DNA of 64,000 bases from Endozoicomonas sp. SCSIO W0465 (GCF_023716865.1 NZ_CP092417.1:4876862-4940861); one strand, 5' to 3'. Shown: positions 3,691-28,052, counted from the stretch's first letter. Translations and numbers: made by a program. The notes: generated by a model not told the origin, from the letters alone.

Positions 3691-5046
3691 ATGCTCGCAA
3701 TTATGGATCAAACATTAAGAGTGATTCACTCATGCAGCCCGCCATGTTTTAAGTCAATCCCCCAGGCGGAACGCCCGATATGGCTGGGACGGGAGACAGA
3801 GAGTGTCAATCCAATCAAAACCAGAGAATGTCCTGTTACCACTGTATCTAAGCCCACGCGCACTTCATCCGTATGGACCCCTACCTCATCAGAGCTGGAA
3901 AAAATGGGCACTGCTGCCTTGTACAACACGCTGATTGCCACCAACCACAACCCCGGGCCCAAGCCCAGGTTTGAAGAAAACCCACTATGTGAGGCTGTAC
4001 TCCAAATTGTGACAGGCAAAAAATATCTTGCACAACCAGATACAGTGGAACCACTTGCTCCAAGTACTTTGGGGGGAATACCCATCTTTGAAAATCCCAT
4101 CATCAACGACAACAGCGAGCCTGACAAACCAGACAGTTCACCGATGGAAACCGATTCCTCTGATCAAGAGGAGTACTTGAGATCTGATATTACCGTTCTT
4201 GAACAGGCAACTGTTGATCAGGCAAATAAAGCCAAAACATCTTCAGCAACACCTGATATATCCTTTGTCAACCACTCTGCCATTATAAGCACGCTAAGAG
4301 CACTGAGGGGACAAGAGGTAACCGCCAACTTTGACTTTATCCATGGAAACCTTAGCGCAGGTTTTGCCAGTTTTGCTCCCAAGGGGAGTAAACTGTGCAT
4401 CCAGATATCATTCAAAAAAGATTTAACCCCTCAGGGAATACCGGCACAAATGCTTCAACAACAGTACGAAATATCAGGTAATTTATCATTTGATGATGAT
4501 GCTATGGTAAAGAGGGTTACCTCGATACCTGCCTGGTGCTTTGTGAAAGAGTCCTGGCAACCTGCTTCTGTCAACCCGATTCATCTTGCACGAGGCAGTA
4601 TAAAAATTTCGAAAAAAGAACCAATGAGACATCATTTAATAAACCACCCTCCCTTAACTAAAGGGCAGCAGGAAATTTATGATACAATGACGTCGCTTTT
4701 TAACAGACAACTCAATACCGACATTGTCAGCCTGAAAAATAAACCAAAACCGAAAACCCCTTTAAAGGGGCAGACCTGTTTTTATCTCAGAACGGGCCAA
4801 TTGCTGTTTATCAGTTTCAAAATCCATCCTGCACAAATACCCTTGGGAATAGATTCATCCGTCTACCTGAAATACGGTAAAATTCTTGGCAATTTGAAAT
4901 ACGACCCAAAATGGTTATTCTCTCAAATAGTAAATAATTCAACTTTACTTCATCCATCACGTCCCGGAACGCTTCCATATGCAAACAAAATTTTTTTTCC
5001 TTCCAGTAGCATATCGTTGTATTTTCAAGACAGGAGAGCCCGTTGA
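3691..5046 (+). CDS. hypothetical protein (orphan, no recognisable domain)
   Basis: Long uninterrupted ORF of 451 aa in an otherwise gene-free 1.6-kb gap. No Shine-Dalgarno (SD) sequence is visible and the start is uncertain (3691 or 3703). It has an acidic, S/P-rich central region. Confidence 0.4.
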   Translation: MLAIMDQTLRVIHSCSPPCFKSIPQAERPIWLGRETESVNPIKTRECPVTTVSKPTRTSSVWTPTSSELEKMGTAALYNTLIATNHNPGPKPRFEENPLCEAVLQIVTGKKYLAQPDTVEPLAPSTLGGIPIFENPIINDNSEPDKPDSSPMETDSSDQEEYLRSDITVLEQATVDQANKAKTSSATPDISFVNHSAIISTLRALRGQEVTANFDFIHGNLSAGFASFAPKGSKLCIQISFKKDLTPQGIPAQMLQQQYEISGNLSFDDDAMVKRVTSIPAWCFVKESWQPASVNPIHLARGSIKISKKEPMRHHLINHPPLTKGQQEIYDTMTSLFNRQLNTDIVSLKNKPKPKTPLKGQTCFYLRTGQLLFISFKIHPAQIPLGIDSSVYLKYGKILGNLKYDPKWLFSQIVNNSTLLHPSRPGTLPYANKIFFPSSSISLYFQDRRAR

Positions 5047-5092: not shown

Positions 5093-5560
5093 TCAGTTGA
5101 ACATCTCTGAAATACTTAAGGTAATTGTTTCAATCTCCTGAACACTGACCGGTACTACCAGAATCGTATCATCCCCTGCCACACACCCCATAACCCCAGC
5201 TTTAACACCAATGGAATCCAGCAGTCTGGCGATCATCTGGGCAGCGCCCGGGCTGGTCTTGATCACAATCATGGACTCATTATGAGCAACTTCTTCCACC
5301 AGGTCTTTTACCGCAATACTGGAATCCATCTTGCCCAATTCAGGAGGCAGGCAGTAGACCAGCTCATTCAGTGCATTGCGCGCCCGGACCGCACCAAAAC
5401 GGCTGAGCATGCGGGACACTTTGGACTGGCTGATATTATCAAATCCCTGCGCCTGCAGAAGGGTAACAATATGGCTCTGGGACCCGCAGCGTTCCTCTTT
5501 TAGTAGCTGGCGGAAAGAGCGAACCAGGGCATCCTGTTTTTGGCTAGTCATCGTCGTCAA
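5093..5560 (-). CDS. argR: arginine repressor ArgR
   Basis: 155 aa. Winged-helix N-domain ([12 protein letters not shown]) and C-terminal hexamerisation/arginine-binding domain ([12 protein letters not shown]), collinear with enterobacterial ArgR. Confidence 0.9.
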
Positions 5561-5652: not shown

Positions 5653-5699
5653 GTGACAATTATAGAGTACGATCATATAAAAATGAATTTTTATTCACT
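5653..5699 (+). promoter_or_regulatory. putative sigma70 promoter followed by an ARG box (ArgR operator)
   Basis: The -35 element is GTGACA (5653-5658), followed by a 17-nt spacer and a -10 element TATAAA (5676-5681). Directly after it, aaTGAATttttATTCAct (5682-5699) matches every specified position of the 18-bp ARG-box consensus wnTGAATwwwwATTCAnw. It lies 73 nt upstream of the transporter ATPase start. I found no convincing second tandem box. Confidence 0.5.
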
Positions 5700-6501
5700 T
5701 TTTTGTTGATTTTATCCAGTTCATACCAGACAATCCAGCCTAAATCTCAACAGGCAAAAAAGATTCAGGCAATGGGTATCGCAGTACAAAGCCTAAGCAA
5801 GTCCTTTGGTGACCACCAGGTACTGAGGGATATCAGCTTCAGCATCAACAAAGGTGAAACAACCGTATTACTGGGCTCCAGTGGTGCGGGCAAAAGTACG
5901 CTGTTACGCATGCTAAACCTTCTTGAGAGCCCGGATCAAGGCACTCTTAACATAGCTGACATGGCGTTCAGCTTCCCACAGGAGACACCTTCTACAAAGC
6001 GATCTGCAAATGCCTGTCAGCTGAGACGCAAAGTCGGCATGGTCTTCCAGCAATATCACCTTTGGCCACATATGACGGTTCTGGCGAACCTCATGGAAGC
6101 GCCCATACAACAGGGTATGTCCAAAACAGAGGCCAGAGAAAAGGCGATAGGACTACTGGCAAGAATGGGACTGCCGGATAAAGCCAATGCATGGCCCTCT
6201 TCCCTTTCCGGTGGCCAGCAGCAGCGGGTAGCCATTGCCCGGGCGTTAATGCTCTCTCCGGAAGTGTTGCTATTTGACGAACCAACCGCTGCGCTGGACC
6301 CGGCGATTACCAACCAGGTGGTGGAAATCATCAACGAATTGCAGGCCTCTGGCATTACCATGGTCGTGGTAACCCACGAAGTCGAGTTTGCCCGGAAAAT
6401 CGCCAGCCGCGTTGTCTATCCGTCATTCAGCACCCGTATCAGGAATAAATTTCCTGATACGGTCGCCCAAGAATTGAAATAATAGTCAACTGCCTTTCTT
6501 G

Positions 6502-8427
6502 GTACGCCCGGCATGGGCATGAACTGATGGGGTGAAAGTCCCCTGTGGGAGAACCTACATCTGACTGGCGGTAAAGACGCCTGCTGATGACAACCACTAG
6601 CTTAAGGCAAGTGCAGTCCCGCGAGGGGCTGTGCGGAGGCAGTCTGAGTGCAAAGGTGCGAGCCGACGTACAGAAATCGCATATAAGGCTGAGTCTCTGG
6701 GCGAGTGAGCCAAGGATCACAAAGCCCTATGGTTCGTGAGACACGGTAAATGCGGCGGTTGTGCACTGAAAGTTCATGTCCTTATCCGGGGAGATCTGTT
6801 CAACATGCGATTGGTAATTCCCAGTTCTCAGCCACTGGTTACAACAGGCTCGGCGAACAGGTCTCATCATCCTGTTCGAGCAAACCCGATGGCAACCAAT
6901 AGCGCCAGCAGAGGTAACTCCGCGTGGTGATTGGACAGAAGTCAGCAGAGGCCATAGTAGCTGTACGACAGAAGCCATTAACGGATGGGAAGTCGTTAGC
7001 GAAGGGCCGAACATCGACGACAAAGAGGAGACTGATTCCCTCAAGGCGATGCAGCCGTCCGGCGACTCACCGTACTTGGCGACAGAATCTTTAACCAGCT
7101 TTGAACCATGATCTACTAAATTGCGTACTTGAACCGGCTAATCTGGCAAGTGCATGGAAACAGGTCAAAAGCAACAAGGGTGCTCCGGGTATTGATGGAG
7201 TCACTATTGAAGCTTATCCAGACTTTGCCAAACAGCATTGGCCTTCAGTGCGTCAAGCCTTATTGGACGGAACCTACCAGCCATCACCCGTGCGCCGACA
7301 TGTTATAGAAAAGCCGGACGGCGGTGAGCGTTTGCTGGGAATCCCTACCGTGATGGATAGGGTCATACAGCAGGCCATTGTGCAGGTGCTGACCCCTGTC
7401 TTTGATCCGGGTTTCTCTCCAAACAGCTTCGGCTACCGACCGGGACGGTCAGCACACGACGGAGTCCGTCAGGTTAAGCAGTTGATCAACCGGGGGCTTC
7501 ATTACGCTGTTGACGTTGATCTGAGTAAATTCTTTGATACGGTTAATCACGACGTTTTGATGTCGAGGGTCTCCCGTAAGGTCCGCGACAAACGCCTTCT
7601 GAAACTGATTGGTAGCTACCTGCGCTCCGGTGTCATGATTGAGGGCAATGTCTACCCGACCAGGGTTGGCATGCCACAGGGTGGGCCTTTATCACCCTTG
7701 CTGTCTAATGTGGTCCTCGACGAACTCGACAAGGAGCTTGAATATCGGGGTCATTGCTTTGCAAGATACTGTGATGATTTTGTGATTCTCGTCAAAAGTC
7801 AGCGTGCAGGGGATCGGGTGATGCACAGCATTACCCAATTCATTGAACGCAAATTGAAACTGAAGATTAACTCCCGGAAAAGTAAAGTTGTGAAAGCAAC
7901 AGAAAGCGAATTCCTGAGTTTCACCTTCACAGGGAAGAAAGTTCGCTGGGCCCAGAAGTGTCTGGACCGATTCAAATACCGGATACTCAAGTTGACCAGT
8001 CGTCGCTGGGGTGTCTCAATGCAACATCGGTTACGCAAATTGGCACAATATATCCGGGGTTGGATGGGGTATTTCCGGTTATCGGAATATCACCGACCAA
8101 TTCCCCTGCTGGATCAATGGATACGTCGGCGAATCCGTTGCTGCTTTCTGAAGCAATGGCGCAAGCCGAAAACCCGTTTTAAGAATCTGGTCAGGTTAGG
8201 CGTTGATAAAATTAACGCCGCCAAGATCGCAGCCAGCAGCAAAGGGTATTACCGTCTGAGTAAAACCTATGCGGTACAACAGGCACTGAATAACAGTTAC
8301 CTCGCGAAAATTGGGCTTGTTTCATTGAAAGACTTATGGATCAGGTTTCACCATCATCGTTGAACCGCCCGGTGCGGACCCGCATGCCGGGTGCTGTGGG
8401 GAGGGCTGGAGAAAGACCGGCCCTTAC
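6502..8427 (+). mobile_element. bacterial group II intron (ribozyme plus RT/maturase ORF, no En domain)
   Basis: The 5' end GTACGCCCGG... resembles the GUGYG consensus (compare GUGCGCCCAG of Ll.LtrB). The ORF sits where domain IV is expected. After the ORF comes a domain-V-like hairpin (CCCGGTGCG-GACC-CGCATGCCGGG), then a domain-VI-like helix ending ...CTTAC. Boundaries are inferred to within a few nt. Confidence 0.75.
7101..8363 (+). CDS. group II intron reverse transcriptase/maturase
   Basis: RT motifs GAPGIDG, RRHVIEKPDGGERLLGIPTVMDRVIQQA, PQGGPLSPLLSN and YCDDFVIL (YxDD), followed by the maturase X domain (LAQYIRGWMGYF). TTG start. No HNH/En domain at the C-terminus. Confidence 0.9.
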   Translation: MNHDLLNCVLEPANLASAWKQVKSNKGAPGIDGVTIEAYPDFAKQHWPSVRQALLDGTYQPSPVRRHVIEKPDGGERLLGIPTVMDRVIQQAIVQVLTPVFDPGFSPNSFGYRPGRSAHDGVRQVKQLINRGLHYAVDVDLSKFFDTVNHDVLMSRVSRKVRDKRLLKLIGSYLRSGVMIEGNVYPTRVGMPQGGPLSPLLSNVVLDELDKELEYRGHCFARYCDDFVILVKSQRAGDRVMHSITQFIERKLKLKINSRKSKVVKATESEFLSFTFTGKKVRWAQKCLDRFKYRILKLTSRRWGVSMQHRLRKLAQYIRGWMGYFRLSEYHRPIPLLDQWIRRRIRCCFLKQWRKPKTRFKNLVRLGVDKINAAKIAASSKGYYRLSKTYAVQQALNNSYLAKIGLVSLKDLWIRFHHHR

Positions 8428-10007
8428 CCGATTAATCCAACCACATGCTTTTCATGTCCATCGACCAATAGCACGTTGATACCCTGAAAGCAGAAAAACA
8501 CCCAACGCGCTGTCGGGTTTTGGCAGGGTTTCCGCTTCATGTCCGGGAAAAACCGACTCTGTCGTTTTAGCTCATGCCTAATTCGATGCTGAATCGCCGC
8601 ATACACTAACAGACACAGCGTCATCACCATCAGCAAGGCTTCTATTCGTTCCGGTTTCTTTAAAAACAGCGAAGAAACCAGAAACTCCGGGCTCTTCAAA
8701 AACCGAAAGCCACGCTCTACTGACTGTTGTGATTTGTAAGTACTTAGCACTTCTGCTGTACTCAGCCGACTGTCGTCCAGATCATTCGTCGCCAGCACAA
8801 AGCAACCCAGAGAACACTCTGCATCTTTGCGACAGTCAACGGATACCCAAGGATATCCGCTCACATAATATTCAATACTGTCCGGTTTAGAGCCTTTCTC
8901 CGGACGACCTACCTTGGTATAGCAGGGTTTCTCAGTAATGACAGGTTCCGCCTGACAATAAATAGTTTTTGACTGCCATTCATCGAACGCACGCAATGCG
9001 TCGGTTTCACACTTGAAGGCTTTTTTGGCCAGTTTACTGGTCAGCGCTTCTGCTTCTTTCTCAGACTTCTTTAGCATTTTTTTCAGCAGTGTTTTTTGTT
9101 CGCTCTTTCGAGCCTGCTCGCTGCGGACCAGAATCCAGCGCTGGGAGACACCCGCATGATCTGACAGCATTTCATGACTCTCATAGCCCTCAGCACCCTC
9201 CACTGGTGTCATTTCACAAGAAGCGACACTGTCAATCAGTTCTCTGGCTTCTTTGATTTTTGACGGAACCCGGGTGATAAATTGCTGGCCCTGCTGATGA
9301 AGTATCTGTACGTTATCTGTTGTATAAAGTGCTGCATCACCAATCAGGTAGCGATTATTCAGGGCTTCCCGGTAGGATTTCAAATGGCTGCTGATGACTT
9401 TTTTAAAGTTTTTATTGTCGTTTACGTTGCCACTGGACGCTTTCATAAAAACGGGAATACCGGCCTGATTTTCCGTCATCATCAGCAGTATTGCCTGGTT
9501 GAGCTCGGGTCGATGATCCCTGCTGTATCCACGACAGAGTTTGATACAGTGCATATCTTCTTCGTCGACGTCAGATTCGCTGTTATAAACGCCGTCCACA
9601 TGCAAGCTTGTTGAGTCAAGGTTCAGAGCCTTGCACGGCAGTTTTAAGACATTCACTGCCTTGACAGCCAGCGATAAATAGACCTCACTTACATCCAGTT
9701 CAAAAAGCTGATCCAGGGCTCTGCCGAGTACACTGTCGTTAATGTGTTCGGGTTTAATACCGGGCCTGATGAGTTTATCCAGCGGTTTATCAGCATGAAA
9801 CTCCGGGAACATATGAAGCGTGCGGGCAGTGAACCCAAGGCCGTTAAGCAGCATTGATACTACGGTTTCGCCAAAGGAAATATTCCGGTGTTCAGATTGG
9901 TTAGGAACCAGGGAATCCAGATGATTAGAGATACCGAGTTCTTTGCACATACCGGCAACCAAACCCATATGATCGATACGTTGAATGTGGAACTGATGAG
10001 GATGCAT
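8424..10007 (-). CDS. IS1634-family DDE transposase
   Basis: 527 aa. The N-terminus IQRIDHMGLVAGMCKELGI (DUF4277-like) is typical of IS1634-type transposases, and an IS4-superfamily DDE core follows. Its stop codon lies within the last bases of the inferred group II intron 3' end. Confidence 0.85.
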   Translation of the reverse strand: MHPHQFHIQRIDHMGLVAGMCKELGISNHLDSLVPNQSEHRNISFGETVVSMLLNGLGFTARTLHMFPEFHADKPLDKLIRPGIKPEHINDSVLGRALDQLFELDVSEVYLSLAVKAVNVLKLPCKALNLDSTSLHVDGVYNSESDVDEEDMHCIKLCRGYSRDHRPELNQAILLMMTENQAGIPVFMKASSGNVNDNKNFKKVISSHLKSYREALNNRYLIGDAALYTTDNVQILHQQGQQFITRVPSKIKEARELIDSVASCEMTPVEGAEGYESHEMLSDHAGVSQRWILVRSEQARKSEQKTLLKKMLKKSEKEAEALTSKLAKKAFKCETDALRAFDEWQSKTIYCQAEPVITEKPCYTKVGRPEKGSKPDSIEYYVSGYPWVSVDCRKDAECSLGCFVLATNDLDDSRLSTAEVLSTYKSQQSVERGFRFLKSPEFLVSSLFLKKPERIEALLMVMTLCLLVYAAIQHRIRHELKRQSRFFPDMKRKPCQNPTARWVFFCFQGINVLLVDGHEKHVVGLIG

Positions 10008-10221
10008 TGGACATGTTCATTCTGAGAATTTTTTACATTTTAGCCGGTGTAGGGAAATTCTCAGATTGAGTGCTGAATGACGGGTCTATCTGGAAAACGG
10101 GGAAATTGTCGAGGAAGGGACTGCCGAACGATTTACCGCTCCAAGAACCCATGCTTTTCAACGTTACCTTCAACATTAATTCAACCACAAGCAAAAACCA
10201 GCTGTCAGTAAGGAAAGCCCG

Positions 10222-10998
10222 ATGAAAAAACTAGTTGCCGCTGTTGCCCTGGCCGGTGCTGCCATCACCTCCCTATCGTTTTCCGCGCCAGGCCAGGCTC
10301 AGGACACCATTCGCTTTGGCATGGAAGCGACCTACCCGCCTTTCGAGTTCTTTAATGAAAAGAATGAGCTGACGGGCTTTGACGTTGAACTGGCCACCGC
10401 CATCTGTGCTGAACTGGATACCACCTGTGAGTTCAGCAACCAACCGTTTGACAGCCTGATCCCCGGGCTTAAGTTCCGCCGGTTTGACGCGGTCATTTCC
10501 GGTATGGATATCACACCAAAACGGATGGAACAGGTCGCCTTTACCCAGCCCTACTATGAAAACTCAGCCATTTTTGTTGCTGCCAGCAAAAATGACTTTA
10601 AAGAAGCCAAGGATCTGATTGGTAAAACTGTCGGCGTACAAAATGGCAGTACCCACCAGGCCTACCTGATCGACAAACTGGAAAAGCAAGGCGTAAAAAC
10701 CCGTCCATACGACAGTTATCAGAATGCCCTGCTGGATATGACCAATGGCCGGGTTGACGCAGTTTTTGCCGATACGGCGGTTGCCCGTGAGTGGCTGGTT
10801 CAGCAGAGCAAAGGGCAATACCAGACAGTTGGTGAAGAAGTAAAGGATGCCAACTACTTCGGTATTGGTATGGGTATCGCTGCCCGTAAGGGTGACCTTC
10901 TGGTCGAAAAACTCAATACCGCACTGGCCGGGGTAAAAGAGAGTGGTCTTTACCAGCAGCTGCATGCCAAGTATTTCAACTCTGCAGAAGTGAGGTAA
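10222..10998 (+). CDS. periplasmic Lys/Arg/Orn- or His-binding protein (ArtJ/ArgT/HisJ family)
   Basis: Signal peptide, then the type-II PBP signature ([14 protein letters not shown]...[14 protein letters not shown]...[13 protein letters not shown]). Confidence 0.9.
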
Positions 10999-11000
10999 CT

Positions 11001-11720
11001 GTGAGCCTGACCGCTCTCTTCGCCCAAGCGACCGTGATGACCCTGGGGCTGGCCCTGTCATCACTGGCCCTTGGCCTGTTAATGGCCATGGCGTTTTCGC
11101 TTGCAGAACTCAGCCGTTACAAACCCCTTGCGCTGGCTGCCAGCACTGTGGTTGCGGTAATGCGCGGGCTTCCGGAAATTCTGGTGGTCTTTTTCATCTA
11201 TTTTGGCTCAACTCATGCGCTATTTCTGGTGACCGATGAGTTTGTTGAGATCAGCCCATTTGTTGCGGGTACTATTGCCCTGTCGTTAATTTATTCGGCC
11301 TACGCCTCACAAACGCTTCGTGGCGCTTTTATGGCTATCCCCAAAGGGCAAACCGAAGCGGCAGTGGCACTGGGGATCAGTCGCAGCCACTGTTTTTTCC
11401 GCATCATCCTGCCGCAGACCTGGCGTCATGCTCTGCCCGGTTTGGGTAACCAATGGCTGGTTCTTCTGAAAGATACTGCGCTGGTCGCCCTGATTGGTGT
11501 CCATGACCTATTGCTCCAGGCCAGGATGACCGCTGCCAGCACCTATGAGCCATTTACCTGGTATGGTGTTGCTGCCTTGATTTACCTGGCAATTACCCTG
11601 ATCAGCCAAAGCGTACTGGAGCGGATGAAATCACGCGCTAATCGACACCTGACTTCCAGTCACAACACTGCTGAAATATCGGTTGAAAAAGCAGTAAGCC
11701 CCAGTGAGGCTACCCCATGA
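11001..11720 (+). CDS. polar amino-acid ABC permease (HisQ/ArtQ-like)
   Basis: GTG start 2 nt after the binding-protein stop. EAA-loop region ([22 protein letters not shown]). Has an unusual ~28-aa C-terminal tail. Confidence 0.85.
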
Positions 11721-11920
11721 ATATGGACTATTTACCGGAGCTGCTGAAAGGTCTTGGAACCACAATGGAACTCACGCTGGCCAGCCTGTTTACCGGGCTC
11801 GTGCTGGCTATCCTGTTCACCACTGTACTTTCCCTGAAAGTAAGGGCTCTGACCTGGCTGGTCAAACTTCAGATTTTACTCTTTACCGGCACGCCACTGC
11901 TGATCCAGATATTTCTGATT

Positions 11921-13032
11921 TAGGACTTACGCATTGACAACAGGCTCTAAAATTTGATAATGCCAAAAAACAGATGTCTTCAGGGATGAAAGTGAGAACT
12001 ACCACTCGACCGACCACTGCACGATGCACTCTTGCAAAATACATTGGCTTTTTGATTAGTGAGCCAAAATCATCAACATGCACAAGACTGGCCGAGGTTA
12101 CCGACTTTTCTCACGATAGCGCAAACCGCTTTCTTAAGCGTGAAAACTATCAGCCCAAAGATATGTACGATGAAGCAGTCAAAAGTTTAAACCCTATTGG
12201 CGGCACCCTGAGCGTTGATGACAGCGTGCTCGACAAACCTTATAGCTACTCCGTGGCACTGGTTGGCCACTTTTGGTCGGGTAAACATCACCGAGTGGTT
12301 AAGGGAGTTAACCTCATCACCCTTTATTACACCGACGTATCCGGGCGCCATATGCCGGTGAATTACAGGATATACGACAAATCGGAAGACAAGACAAAAA
12401 ACGACTACTTCCGTGAAATGTTGATTGAAGTGCTGGTATGGGGGCTGAAGCCAGCGTTCGTTACCGGTGACTCCTGGTACAGCTGCACGACTAACCTGAA
12501 GACGATTAAAAACCATCAGACTGGGTTTATGTTTGCCGTTGAGAAAAACAGGACAGTATCACTGGAAAAAGGTAAATGGCAGCAGGTTCAACACCTCGAC
12601 ATCCCCGACAATGGTCTGGATGTATGGCTCAAAGACTTCGGTAAGATCCGGTTGTTCAGGACGATGCTAAAAGACCAGCGTCGCCACTACGTGGTTTACT
12701 TGCCAGAGGAAGTCCCTTTTGAACGCAATGACTTCAAGCAGATCCATGACCAGCACTGGCAGATCGAACAGTTTCACAGGGCGATCAAGCAGGTTTGCCA
12801 TATTGAGCACTTTCAGGTTCGCAGCGAACGACCCGTCAGAAACCATATATTTGCTGCAATTTTAGCTTTTGTTTATCTCCAGAAAATGCAGATAGAGCAG
12901 GAGTTTACGAATATTTATCAGCACCAACGGGGGCTGTTTAAAGAGACAATAGGCGCTTTCATTGAGAGTTTTGCAAAGGGGAAGGATCACCTCCTACCAA
13001 AATTTATCGGTGTCATCAATGCGTAAGTCCTA
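11921..13032 (+). mobile_element. IS701-family-like insertion sequence (IS4 superfamily)
   Basis: 17-bp perfect IRs TAGGACTTACGCATTGA (11921-11937; reverse complement at 13016-13032). 5-bp TSD TGATT (11916-11920 and 13033-13037). Confidence 0.75.
11974..13026 (+). CDS. DDE transposase (IS701-like)
   Basis: 350 aa filling the IS. C-terminal signature HWQIEQFHRAIKQ. The N-terminal region (RLAEVTDFSHDSANRFL) resembles IS701/DDE_5 transposases. The family assignment is from memory. Confidence 0.75.
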   Translation: MSSGMKVRTTTRPTTARCTLAKYIGFLISEPKSSTCTRLAEVTDFSHDSANRFLKRENYQPKDMYDEAVKSLNPIGGTLSVDDSVLDKPYSYSVALVGHFWSGKHHRVVKGVNLITLYYTDVSGRHMPVNYRIYDKSEDKTKNDYFREMLIEVLVWGLKPAFVTGDSWYSCTTNLKTIKNHQTGFMFAVEKNRTVSLEKGKWQQVQHLDIPDNGLDVWLKDFGKIRLFRTMLKDQRRHYVVYLPEEVPFERNDFKQIHDQHWQIEQFHRAIKQVCHIEHFQVRSERPVRNHIFAAILAFVYLQKMQIEQEFTNIYQHQRGLFKETIGAFIESFAKGKDHLLPKFIGVINA

Positions 13033-13772
13033 TGATTTATTACGGCCCGGCTCAATTTGCTGTCATCAAAAACAGCGTTCTGTGGCCCTGGTTAAGCCAA
13101 CCCTGGTTCTGCGCCATGCTGGCCCTCGCCCTGAACTCAGCCGCCTATTCCACCTTGCTGTTCAAGGGAGCCATTGATGCCGTGCCAAAAAGCGACTGGG
13201 AAGCCTGTATGGCACTGGGCATGACACACAGACAGGCACTGCTGCGGGTTATCCTGCCCCATGCCGCGCGCCGGGCACTCCCAGCCTATGGCAACGAAAT
13301 TATCCTGGTTATGAAAGGTTCATCACTGGCCAGTACCATTACGTTGATGGATTTGATGGGCTATGCAGCCAGACTGAATGCACAAACTTACGACACATTA
13401 ACTGTGTTCACCATGGCCGGCCTGATTTACCTGGCCATGACGGGTGTTATGACAGTATTGATCCGCTTTATGGAACACAAAGTTCTGGCATTCAACCGTT
13501 GACCTGTATTGGCGACTGATGAGAATGCGGCTTTTTCCAGTTCCCCGGGAGCCTGTATCTTTGCATCGCAATGAACCGCTCATTCCGATCCTGGCTATCT
13601 GGATCACAGACCGGTTTTTTACAGATACCTGACTGCTGACTACAATTGTCGGTGGTCATCCGGGTCATTGTTTTCTGGAAACCCATAGAACAACATCATG
13701 GAAACGTCGAAAAGCCTGGCTGACACCTTCCACGGATAAAACAGTCAGGCACATCGGGTACATATTTCAGCA

Positions 13773-26943: not shown

Positions 26944-28052
26944 GGCTAAGTTACCGTTAATGGTTGAATCAGCTAAACTCCCATAAAATCTACGTTGTAG
27001 GGGAGTGATATGCAATCTGAACTCTTCAAGAATTTTATTGATTCCATTTCAACATTAACCAGTGAACAGCGAGACATTCTTAACAACTCGCTCCTTAGTA
27101 CTCAAATAGAGGTTACCGAGGTAGTAGAAACCACTGACTCTGAACCTGTTTACAGTGAATCTATACCCAATAACGATAATGCAACACCTGACGTAGAAAA
27201 GAGCATACTTGCCCAATTTGCCGAAAACCCCAGGTGCCCCAAATGCAAAAGCCATAGCGTTGGTCGCTGGGGCATACGAAATGGCCGACAGCGCTACCAC
27301 TGCAAGACTTGCGACTCAACGTTTAACGCCTTTAGTGGAACGCCTTTGGCAAGGCTCAGGCACCCTGAAAAATGGAACAAGTACCTCGCAGGTATGACTC
27401 ACTCTATGGTCTTGCGACCAGCTGCTGCTGAGAATGCCATTGACTTGAAAACTGCGTTCCGCTGGCGTCACCGCTTTCTTGAAGTGATTAATAATGATCA
27501 AGCAGAAGAGCTTTGTGGCATTACTGAGCTTGATGAAACATTTTTCCGTGAATCCTTCAAAGGGCAAAGAGAAGGCCTTCCACGGCCAACCCGAAAGCGG
27601 GGTAATGATCCCAACAAAGCCCGAAAAGTCCCGGTAATGGTGGCTCGGGACCGTAATCGAAATACCGTTGACGGTGTATTAGAAAACGAAAGTGCTAATG
27701 AATTGTGCAGGCATTTAAATGGCCGCATATCGATACAGGCCACGGTCTGTGCGGATGCACACCTCGCTCACGAAAAACTTGCTGACAAGCTTGGATTTGT
27801 CTTCAAGGAGCTGGTGACATCAGCAGGTCAACATGTTGTTGAAGGCATCTACCACATCCAGACTGTAAATTCTTATCACAGTCATTTAAAACGCTGGATT
27901 GGCGGCGTATTCCAAGGGGTTGCAACTCGTTACCTTCCCCATTATCTGGCCTGGAGGCGAGAACTGACGGCAGCAAAAAAATTAACTGTTGGCCGGTTGA
28001 TCAGCAGAATTACTGAACATTGGTGCTTCCAACCATTAACGGTAACTTAGCC
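26944..28052 (+). mobile_element. IS1595-family insertion sequence, copy 1
   Basis: 23-bp perfect IRs GGCTAAGTTACCGTTAATGGTTG. 9-bp TSD GTCTGGGAA (26935-26943 and 28053-28061). 1109 bp. Confidence 0.85.
27010..28050 (+). CDS. IS1595-family (ISXO2-like) transposase
   Basis: N-terminal zinc ribbon CPKCKSHSVGRWG...RYHCKTCDSTF, followed by a DDE domain. 346 aa. Confidence 0.85.
   Translation: MQSELFKNFIDSISTLTSEQRDILNNSLLSTQIEVTEVVETTDSEPVYSESIPNNDNATPDVEKSILAQFAENPRCPKCKSHSVGRWGIRNGRQRYHCKTCDSTFNAFSGTPLARLRHPEKWNKYLAGMTHSMVLRPAAAENAIDLKTAFRWRHRFLEVINNDQAEELCGITELDETFFRESFKGQREGLPRPTRKRGNDPNKARKVPVMVARDRNRNTVDGVLENESANELCRHLNGRISIQATVCADAHLAHEKLADKLGFVFKELVTSAGQHVVEGIYHIQTVNSYHSHLKRWIGGVFQGVATRYLPHYLAWRRELTAAKKLTVGRLISRITEHWCFQPLTVT

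Follow-up and report, generated by a model that had tools for sequence, protein, structure and literature searches.

Background

RmInt1 of Sinorhizobium meliloti is an endonuclease-less group II intron of class D (IIB-like), which resides in the transposase gene of the insertion sequence (IS) ISRm2011-2 and homes into a long and specific site in this element. Here we describe a locus in which an intron, like RmInt1, is endonuclease-less and housed in the transposase gene of an IS, found in a stretch of 64,000 nucleotides (nt) from Endozoicomonas sp. SCSIO W0465 (GCF_023716865.1, NZ_CP092417.1:4876862-4940861), hereafter the window, whose positions are counted from its first letter. The intron, which we assign to class C (IIC), lies in an IS1634-family IS, and this IS in turn interrupts an artP-like ATP-binding cassette (ABC) ATPase gene. 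Group II introns within other mobile elements are common in bacteria (PMC7923331), and the genomes of Endozoicomonas are reported to harbour dozens of group II introns together with hundreds of transposase genes (PMC4781883, PMC9296628).

Class C introns recognize their exons through a pairing of 3-4 base pairs (bp) between exon-binding site 1 (EBS1) and intron-binding site 1 (IBS1) (PMC1702495, PMC7923331), and the triad of their domain V is CGC, in place of AGC (PMC7923331). They use a stem-loop located 3-11 nt upstream of the splice site, as reported for B.h.I1, in which the deletion of the terminator stem-loop abolished exon ligation in vitro (PMC1702495). The IIC-attC introns (e.g. S.ma.I2) enter the attC sites of integrons at TTGT/T (here and below, the slash in a site marks the insertion point), on the bottom strand and antisense to the cassettes, and a TTGT/T site placed about 10-11 nt after a hairpin is the reported signature of this lineage (PMC7923331). 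The rules for IIC target sites applied in this study were taken from PMC1702495, PMC4424553 and PMC7923331.

In this study we delimit the three layers of the locus, assign each of them to a family, and weigh the alternative histories that might explain their nesting. Our results make it very probable that the IS entered artP, that the class C intron then entered the IS, and that the transposase was thereby truncated.

Results

Boundaries of the intron and its position in the transposase gene

The intron's 5' end (6502) lies 82 bp from the left end of the IS. On the plus strand, domains I-IV were recognized by the Rfam models RF02001 (6615-6780, 128 bits, gathering score 32) and RF01998 (6903-7007, 59 bits, gathering score 35), and domains V and VI by RF00029 at 8363-8432 (36 bits, gathering score 40, E = 1.6e-4), whose alignment puts the 3' end of the intron at ...CCCUUACCCGAU (8432). 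Some 40 homologues of the intron, found in unrelated genomes, have GTACG or GTGCG as their first bases, aligned with 6502, and ACCCGAT as their last, aligned with 8432, and four intron-free copies of the IS, all from one metagenome assembly, are contiguous across 6501/8433. When candidate boundaries were deleted and the minus strand was translated, the removal of 6502-8432 alone restored a long open reading frame (ORF), of 545 amino acids (aa). Because the ends of the homologues, the empty IS copies and the rebuilt transposase all agree, the segment 6502-8432 is an intron of 1931 nt that was inserted into the IS and is not part of it. A preliminary description of this DNA had the strand and the start of the intron right; the 3' end that it gave, 8427, is 5 nt off according to Rfam, the homologues and the empty IS copies, and would produce a 531-aa transposase ending in ...GLIGKKGS, which has no counterpart in homologues.

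The same evidence bears on whether 6502-8432 might instead be an integral passenger module of the IS, such as a reverse transcriptase (RT) cargo gene. Its position inside the IS speaks for this, and nothing further does; the reading is refuted by nine IS copies which lack the segment and are contiguous across the junction, by the fact that the segment splits a conserved transposase ORF, by the occurrence of the same element at other sites without the IS, and by the complete set of group II ribozyme domains that the segment contains. The preliminary description, which had left room for this possibility, placed the intron in the IS without relating it to the transposase gene. The intron is not a passenger beside that gene: the rebuilt 545-aa ORF places it within the gene, on the opposite strand, 20 codons ahead of the stop.

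As a result, the transposase now has 527 aa in place of 545 and lacks residues that are conserved at the C-terminus. Against the IS1634-family model NF033559 (cut-off 100), the truncated protein scores 342 bits and covers profile positions 3-462 of 483 only, whereas the rebuilt protein scores 351 bits and covers positions 3-482; that the gene is incomplete was first suggested by this missing tail. A protein search retrieved many IS1634 transposases of 544-545 aa, mostly from Endozoicomonas, the best of them 82-93% identical over 100% of the query, and the last 24 residues of the rebuilt transposase are identical to those of the homologues P0001-P0004 or one substitution away. Residues E527, I532, G537, Y540, Y544 and S545 are invariant among homologues down to 51% identity. 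Since the truncation removes conserved C-terminal residues, transposase activity has probably been lost, and the intron-bearing IS is probably no longer autonomous. Furthermore, the intron is antisense to the gene and therefore not removable from the transposase messenger RNA.

Class of the intron and exon recognition

Among solved structures, the best match of the intron-encoded protein (residues 5-419) was the GsI-IIC RT (6AR1, 460 bits); further IIC maturases scored 358 and 256 bits, whereas the IIA protein LtrA reached 141 bits and a IIB maturase 128 bits. The YxDD motif of the RT is present as YCDD, and no endonuclease domain was detected in the 420-aa protein, whose Pfam matches were RVT_1 and GIIM only. 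Domains V and VI, for which the preliminary description had proposed a search with covariance models, are present: in addition to the RF00029 match, an RNAalifold consensus of the last 78 nt of 27 homologues contains compensatory double changes in 10 of its 26 pairs (4 in domain V and 6 in domain VI), which supports both helices.

For the identification of EBS1, domain I of 32 homologues was aligned and a column window was sought that pairs, in each intron, with its own upstream exon. The window of columns obtained pairs with IBS1 over 3 nt in 25 of 31 homologues and over 4 nt in 19 of 31, and the two partners covary (ACAA with TTGT, ACCA with TGGT, CAAT with ATTG, TAAC with GTTA, and CAAG or CAAA with YTTG). 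In the intron studied here the pairing is a perfect 4 bp, CAAG with CTTG.

On the basis of the match to the GsI-IIC RT, the CGC triad of domain V and the covarying short EBS1-IBS1 pairing, the intron is assigned to class C. An RmInt1-like, class D identity had been the first guess, suggested by an endonuclease-free 420-aa protein in an IS, and was rejected on these same three grounds, with an EBS1 of 4 bp.

Relatives of the intron

The nearest relatives of the intron come from Endozoicomonas acroporae and from TARA coral metagenomes, at 93-97% nucleotide and 97-98% protein identity; the E. acroporae protein, of equal length (420 aa), is 98% identical to the one encoded here. In the copies L154-L156 the intron lies in an attC-like palindrome (GCTAAC ... 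hairpin ... G/TTAGC) adjoining a fic gene, and in L008 it lies six bases after a terminator-like hairpin. Together with the copy in the window, these amount to three distinct sites in one young lineage, which argues for the mobility of that lineage. The protein gene differs from that of L154 by 24 synonymous and 10 nonsynonymous codons, a pattern that fits purifying selection. The second pair of domain V is a C-C mismatch in all five copies (that of the window and the four relatives, at three sites), so that the mismatch has not stood in the way of movement. EBS1 is CAAG in some of the close copies and CAAA in others; the perfect match to the IS site thus need not be a later adaptation.

Most homologues are inserted at TTGT/T, approximately 10-11 nt downstream of a GC-rich imperfect hairpin as judged by eye. 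The EBS1 of the Endozoicomonas sub-lineage is CAAR, pairing with YTTG, whereas other homologues have ACAA pairing with TTGT, and the cut is accordingly displaced by one base relative to the GTT core.

Two further observations concern these relatives. The attC-like palindrome of L154 (2340-2401 and 4333-4345, with equivalents in L155 and L156) hints at an integron-like cassette array, or at an integrase-less attC cluster (CALIN), in Endozoicomonas. Two related introns, L007 (3387-6651) and L053, measure about 3.3 kilobases (kb) versus the usual 1.9-2.0 kb, a length which suggests that they contain a further insertion, e.g. a twintron or an IS.

Insertion site in the IS

The empty site of the window has a folding energy of -3.6 kcal/mol (z -0.9), comparable to that of shuffled sequence. 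The related sites of L008 and L007 reach -8.8 kcal/mol (z -3.4) and -11.2 kcal/mol (z -4.2), respectively, and for a third, that of L154, folding gave no difference from shuffles. The left IS end has a single strong hairpin (Table 1), which ends 39 nt upstream of the insertion site; this distal hairpin may have had a role in the entry of the intron. A weak hairpin at 6467-6501, which overlaps IBS1, was considered as a recognition stem-loop and rejected, being no better than shuffled sequence, and no attC-like palindrome extends across the junction in the window (CTTG/T, inside the IS).

At the insertion position the intron-free relatives of the IS carry CTTG/C or CCTG/C, as opposed to CTTG/T in the IS of the window. 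The T at +1 comes from a synonymous leucine codon, the IS of the window having TTA instead of the TTG of its relatives. We read the entry of the intron as opportunistic and as steered mainly by the 5-nt match. A broader proposal, which we regard as improbable, is that the Endozoicomonas branch, with its shifted EBS1 register, may invade sites offering only the 5-nt YTTG/T, without a nearby stem-loop. If it were true, the intron could land in transposase genes and disable IS, one selfish element thus restraining another.

The IS1634-family element

The preliminary description had delimited the insert (6420-10083) by its 14-bp perfect inverted repeats and GTCTAT direct repeat, and had recognized a minus-strand IS1634-type transposase; reading of the sequence and a motif search confirm the former, and the NF033559 scores given above the latter. 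Beyond the two IS ends, the terminal repeat CCGTCATTCAGCAC has no match in the window at up to 2 mismatches. Nine intron-free copies, recovered from five samples, match the 1733-bp IS without its intron over its entire length (1-1733), with nucleotide identities of 82-88%. These related copies have the same terminal repeats, the left one being identical in all nine, and 6-bp duplications are present in four of the five which have both flanks. DUF4277 and DDE_Tnp_1 are the Pfam domains of the transposase ORF as it now stands.

The interrupted artP-like gene and its transcription

The 5' part of the artP-like gene starts with ATG at 5772, and its homology to ATPases stops at ...ASRVVY (6419); from 10090 the frame continues with LENGEIVEEG...QH up to the stop codon at 10177-10179. 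The two parts, when joined, encode 245 aa that span positions 1-242 of 242 of the ArtP model NF008338 with 358 bits, below the curated cut-off of 369, the runner-up family GlnQ reaching 255 bits. The reconstruction therefore agrees with the earlier claim of an ArtP/HisP-like ORF cut after ...VVY and resumed in frame at 10090, and the nesting of gene, IS and intron, with the families proposed for them, was correctly described. The operon context is compatible with ArtP, given argR upstream and genes for a binding protein and two permeases downstream. artP is now a pseudogene.

Read-through from the artP promoter, presumably controlled by ArgR, into the intron is plausible, because argR is adjacent, because the intergenic region contains a perfect ARG box, AATGAATTTTTATTCACT, the sole zero-mismatch match in the window to the 18-bp consensus WNTGAATWWWWATTCANW, and because no terminator-like site was predicted on the plus strand from 5772 to the start of the intron at 6502. 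Such read-through would be a plausible natural way for the intron to be expressed. Splicing of the intron would leave the IS in artP and would not restore this gene.

The last gene of the art operon, artM (11717-13502), is also split, after ...LLIQIFLI, by an IS701-family element of 1112 bp (11921-13032; transposase 11974-13026), with 17-bp perfect inverted repeats TAGGACTTACGCATTGA and a 5-bp duplication, TGATT; its removal yields an intact artM permease of 223 aa. With artM split as well as artP, the art operon has therefore been hit twice, independently, by IS. On the other side of the locus, a 451-aa ORF (3691-5046, plus strand) without a Pfam match adjoins argR.

Table 1. Features of the nested locus and its surroundings (positions in the window; a dot denotes that no strand applies)
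Feature	Position	Strand	Basis or remarks
argR (arginine repressor), divergent from artP	5093..5560	-	Pfam Arg_repressor and Arg_repressor_C
ARG box-like site AATGAATTTTTATTCACT, argR-artP intergenic region	5682..5699	+	Candidate; sequence match only
artP-like ABC ATPase gene, 5' fragment (216 codons)	5772..6419	+	Pfam ABC_tran; best NCBIfam match ArtP, 313 bits
Target-site duplication GTCTAT (6 bp), left copy	6414..6419	.	Read from sequence
IS1634-family IS	6420..10083	transposase on -	3664 bp with the intron, 1733 bp without; NF033559 match
Left terminal inverted repeat CCGTCATTCAGCAC	6420..6433	+	14 bp, perfect
Hairpin with a perfect 12-bp stem, left IS end	6434..6462	.	DNA fold of 6420-6510: -18.7 kcal/mol, z -5.65
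Displaced last 20 codons and stop of the transposase gene	6439..6501	-	Reconstruction; alignment to 545-aa homologues
IBS1 (CTTG), last 4 nt of the 5' exon	6498..6501	+	Complementary to EBS1
Group II intron assigned to class C (IIC), 1931 nt	6502..8432	+	5' GUACG ... ACCCGAU 3'; Rfam, homologues, empty IS copies
EBS1 (CAAG), domain I hairpin loop	6711..6714	+	Best covarying 3- and 4-nt window versus IBS1
Intron-encoded RT/maturase, 420 aa, TTG start	7101..8363	+	TIGR04416, 399 bits; Pfam RVT_1, GIIM
Domain V	8364..8395	+	CGC triad 8366-8368, AU bulge 8384-8385, C-C mismatch 8365/8394
Domain VI	8397..8430	+	Bulged branch-point A at 8426
Transposase ORF as present, 527 aa	8424..10007	-	Residues 1-525 native; last two (I, G) and stop from the intron
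IBS3 (T), first nt of the 3' exon	8433	+	T at almost all homologous sites
Right terminal inverted repeat	10070..10083	-	14 bp, perfect
Target-site duplication GTCTAT, right copy	10084..10089	.	Read from sequence
artP-like gene, 3' fragment (29 codons and stop)	10090..10179	+	Read from sequence; rebuilt-protein match
Periplasmic binding protein gene, downstream art operon	10222..10998	+	Pfam SBP_bac_3
artQ-like permease gene, downstream art operon	11001..11720	+	Pfam BPD_transp_1

Other observations in the window

Two IS1595-family copies (26944-28050 and 34467-35573; 346-aa transposase, NF033547 172 bits) lie in direct orientation 7523 bp apart and are almost the same for at least 300 bp, with a first mismatch at 27028/34551. 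On the minus strand, an ORF of 1145 aa (59506-62943) contains about 16 tandem repeats of 144 nt (48 aa), 69-92% identical (59898-62213), and has no convincing Pfam domain; a relative of the 144-nt repeat recurs with its flanks about 4 kb downstream (63165-64000; ORF 63158-63994, minus strand). At 31442-31537, within another minus-strand ORF (31380-32636), there are at least six units of a 12-nt tandem repeat resembling TGTCCTGACTAC. GC skew on the plus strand is negative in 14 of the 16 4-kb bins of the window (1-64000). If the skew reflects replication, the sense strand of the intron would be the C-rich strand, although IS-rich genomes are often rearranged.

Discussion

Order of the insertions

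The history which we favour would have three steps. An IS1634-family IS of 1733 bp would first have transposed into the artP-like gene, at codon 216/217, duplicating GTCTAT and inactivating the gene. The class C intron would then have reverse-spliced into the IS at CTTG/T, a site chosen by the pairing of CAAG with CTTG and by T as IBS3. Its lineage normally enters behind attC-like or terminator hairpins and, with an intron protein lacking an endonuclease, the priming of complementary DNA would have depended on host replication. The outcome, as the third step, would be an intron antisense to the transposase gene and never spliced out of its messenger RNA, a transposase cut from 545 to 527 aa, and an IS copy that is probably not autonomous. 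Transcripts from the artP promoter may run into the intron, which has the same orientation, and could provide both the RNA and the protein for splicing and for further mobility.

Several points weigh against this history. The layout alone fits two orders of insertion. Folding of the sequence upstream of the insertion site revealed no stable stem-loop at a distance of 3-11 nt. The RF00029 score is slightly below its gathering score (36 versus 40 bits). Lastly, domain V has a C-C mismatch beside its catalytic triad, although the mismatch is common to four further copies at two other sites.

The first of these points bears on the order of events, which the preliminary description took to be documented by the nesting with its clean junctions. 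Nesting does not suffice, since the intron might have entered the IS elsewhere, and the composite IS::intron (3664 bp) might then have moved into artP, mobilized in trans by the intact transposase of a sister copy. The nested layout is compatible with such a course of events; the terminal inverted repeats are undamaged at both ends and the same as in relatives that look active, and sister copies are likely in a genus whose genomes carry hundreds of transposase genes (PMC4781883, PMC9296628). We nevertheless consider it rather unlikely. No second composite copy was found in the collections searched, among which the source genome was not included and which hold no exact match to the intron protein, the truncated transposase or the binding protein; a scan of metagenomes for the transposase yielded distant relatives only (at most 58% identity), with no composite element among them. 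Moreover, nine of the nine related IS copies recovered are intron-free, and the truncation of its own transposase makes self-mobilization after the entry of the intron less likely. The order with the IS first and the intron second is favoured because the transposase is truncated and all nine recovered relatives of the IS are empty; it is likely, not proven.

The missing stem-loop and the mismatch bear on whether the intron may be active at present. The copy in the window could be an immobile relic, with a weakened domain V and at a non-canonical site that has no stem-loop nearby, and could neither splice nor move any longer, a possibility that we find doubtful and yet worth keeping in view. 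The site has no proximal stem-loop, and B.h.I1 without its terminator stem-loop fails in exon ligation in vitro (PMC1702495); the C-C mismatch at 8365/8394 points in the same direction. On the other hand, the ORF of 420 aa has remained intact and retains YCDD, its differences from L154 are mostly synonymous, the EBS1-IBS1 pairing is a perfect 4 bp, and the mismatch in domain V, being common to copies at three sites, is compatible with mobility. Under the favoured history, the intron may have retained its activity after it entered the IS.

As for the age of these events, the recent activity proposed in the preliminary description has indirect support. The clean junctions, the intact ORFs and the undamaged artP frame are compatible with recent events, as are the 93-97% identical copies of the intron at other sites, without dating them.

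Implications

For annotation, artP should be regarded as a pseudogene, and the transposase ORF as called is a truncated product with an intron-derived tail. The two IS hits on the art operon fit the IS-driven pseudogenization reported for host-associated Endozoicomonas (PMC4781883). For intron biology, the locus provides a clear case in nature of a class C intron inserted where the customary hairpin upstream is missing, and it also yields a clean series of covarying sequences for the 4-bp pairing of EBS1 with IBS1. The nested arrangement of gene, IS and intron leaves current understanding unchanged, and matters mainly for annotation and for the study of genome erosion.

Comparison with known systems

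The IS has the attributes of the IS1634 family, namely a single transposase, of DDE type and with DUF4277 as its N-terminal domain, short inverted repeats and 6-bp duplications. Its nearest named relative is ISVa17 of Vibrio anguillarum, whose transposase has 51% aa identity to that of the window; the closest relatives (82-93%) are not ISVa17 but unnamed elements of Endozoicomonas-type assemblies.

With B.h.I1 of Bacillus halodurans and GsI-IIC of Geobacillus stearothermophilus the intron shares a size of about 1.9 kb and an endonuclease-free RT/maturase (420 aa in our case), and with class C introns in general the CGC triad and exon recognition by a 3-4 bp EBS1-IBS1 pairing plus IBS3. The class C habit of insertion behind terminator-like hairpins is seen in its close relative L008. 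Unlike B.h.I1 and GsI-IIC, it lies inside a coding sequence, antisense in the transposase gene; unlike B.h.I1, it has no stable stem-loop in the 3-11 nt range; and its 5' end is GUACG, GUGCG being commoner. There is likewise a resemblance to IIC-attC introns, in that most homologues lie at TTGT/T behind a hairpin and L154-L156 in an attC-like palindrome, whereas the intron of the window occupies a CTTG/T site inside an IS and not an attC site. It differs from RmInt1 in being assigned to class C, in a site match of about 5 nt, in the emptiness of all related IS copies, and in its orientation antisense to the transposase gene.

Each layer of the locus, gene, IS and intron, consequently belongs to a known family, and nested mobile DNA of this kind is here clean but ordinary. 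What is unusual about it is that the intron lies antisense in the transposase gene, that no stem-loop is found close to the site and that the EBS1 register of the sub-lineage is shifted; these details represent variations within the known behaviour of these elements.

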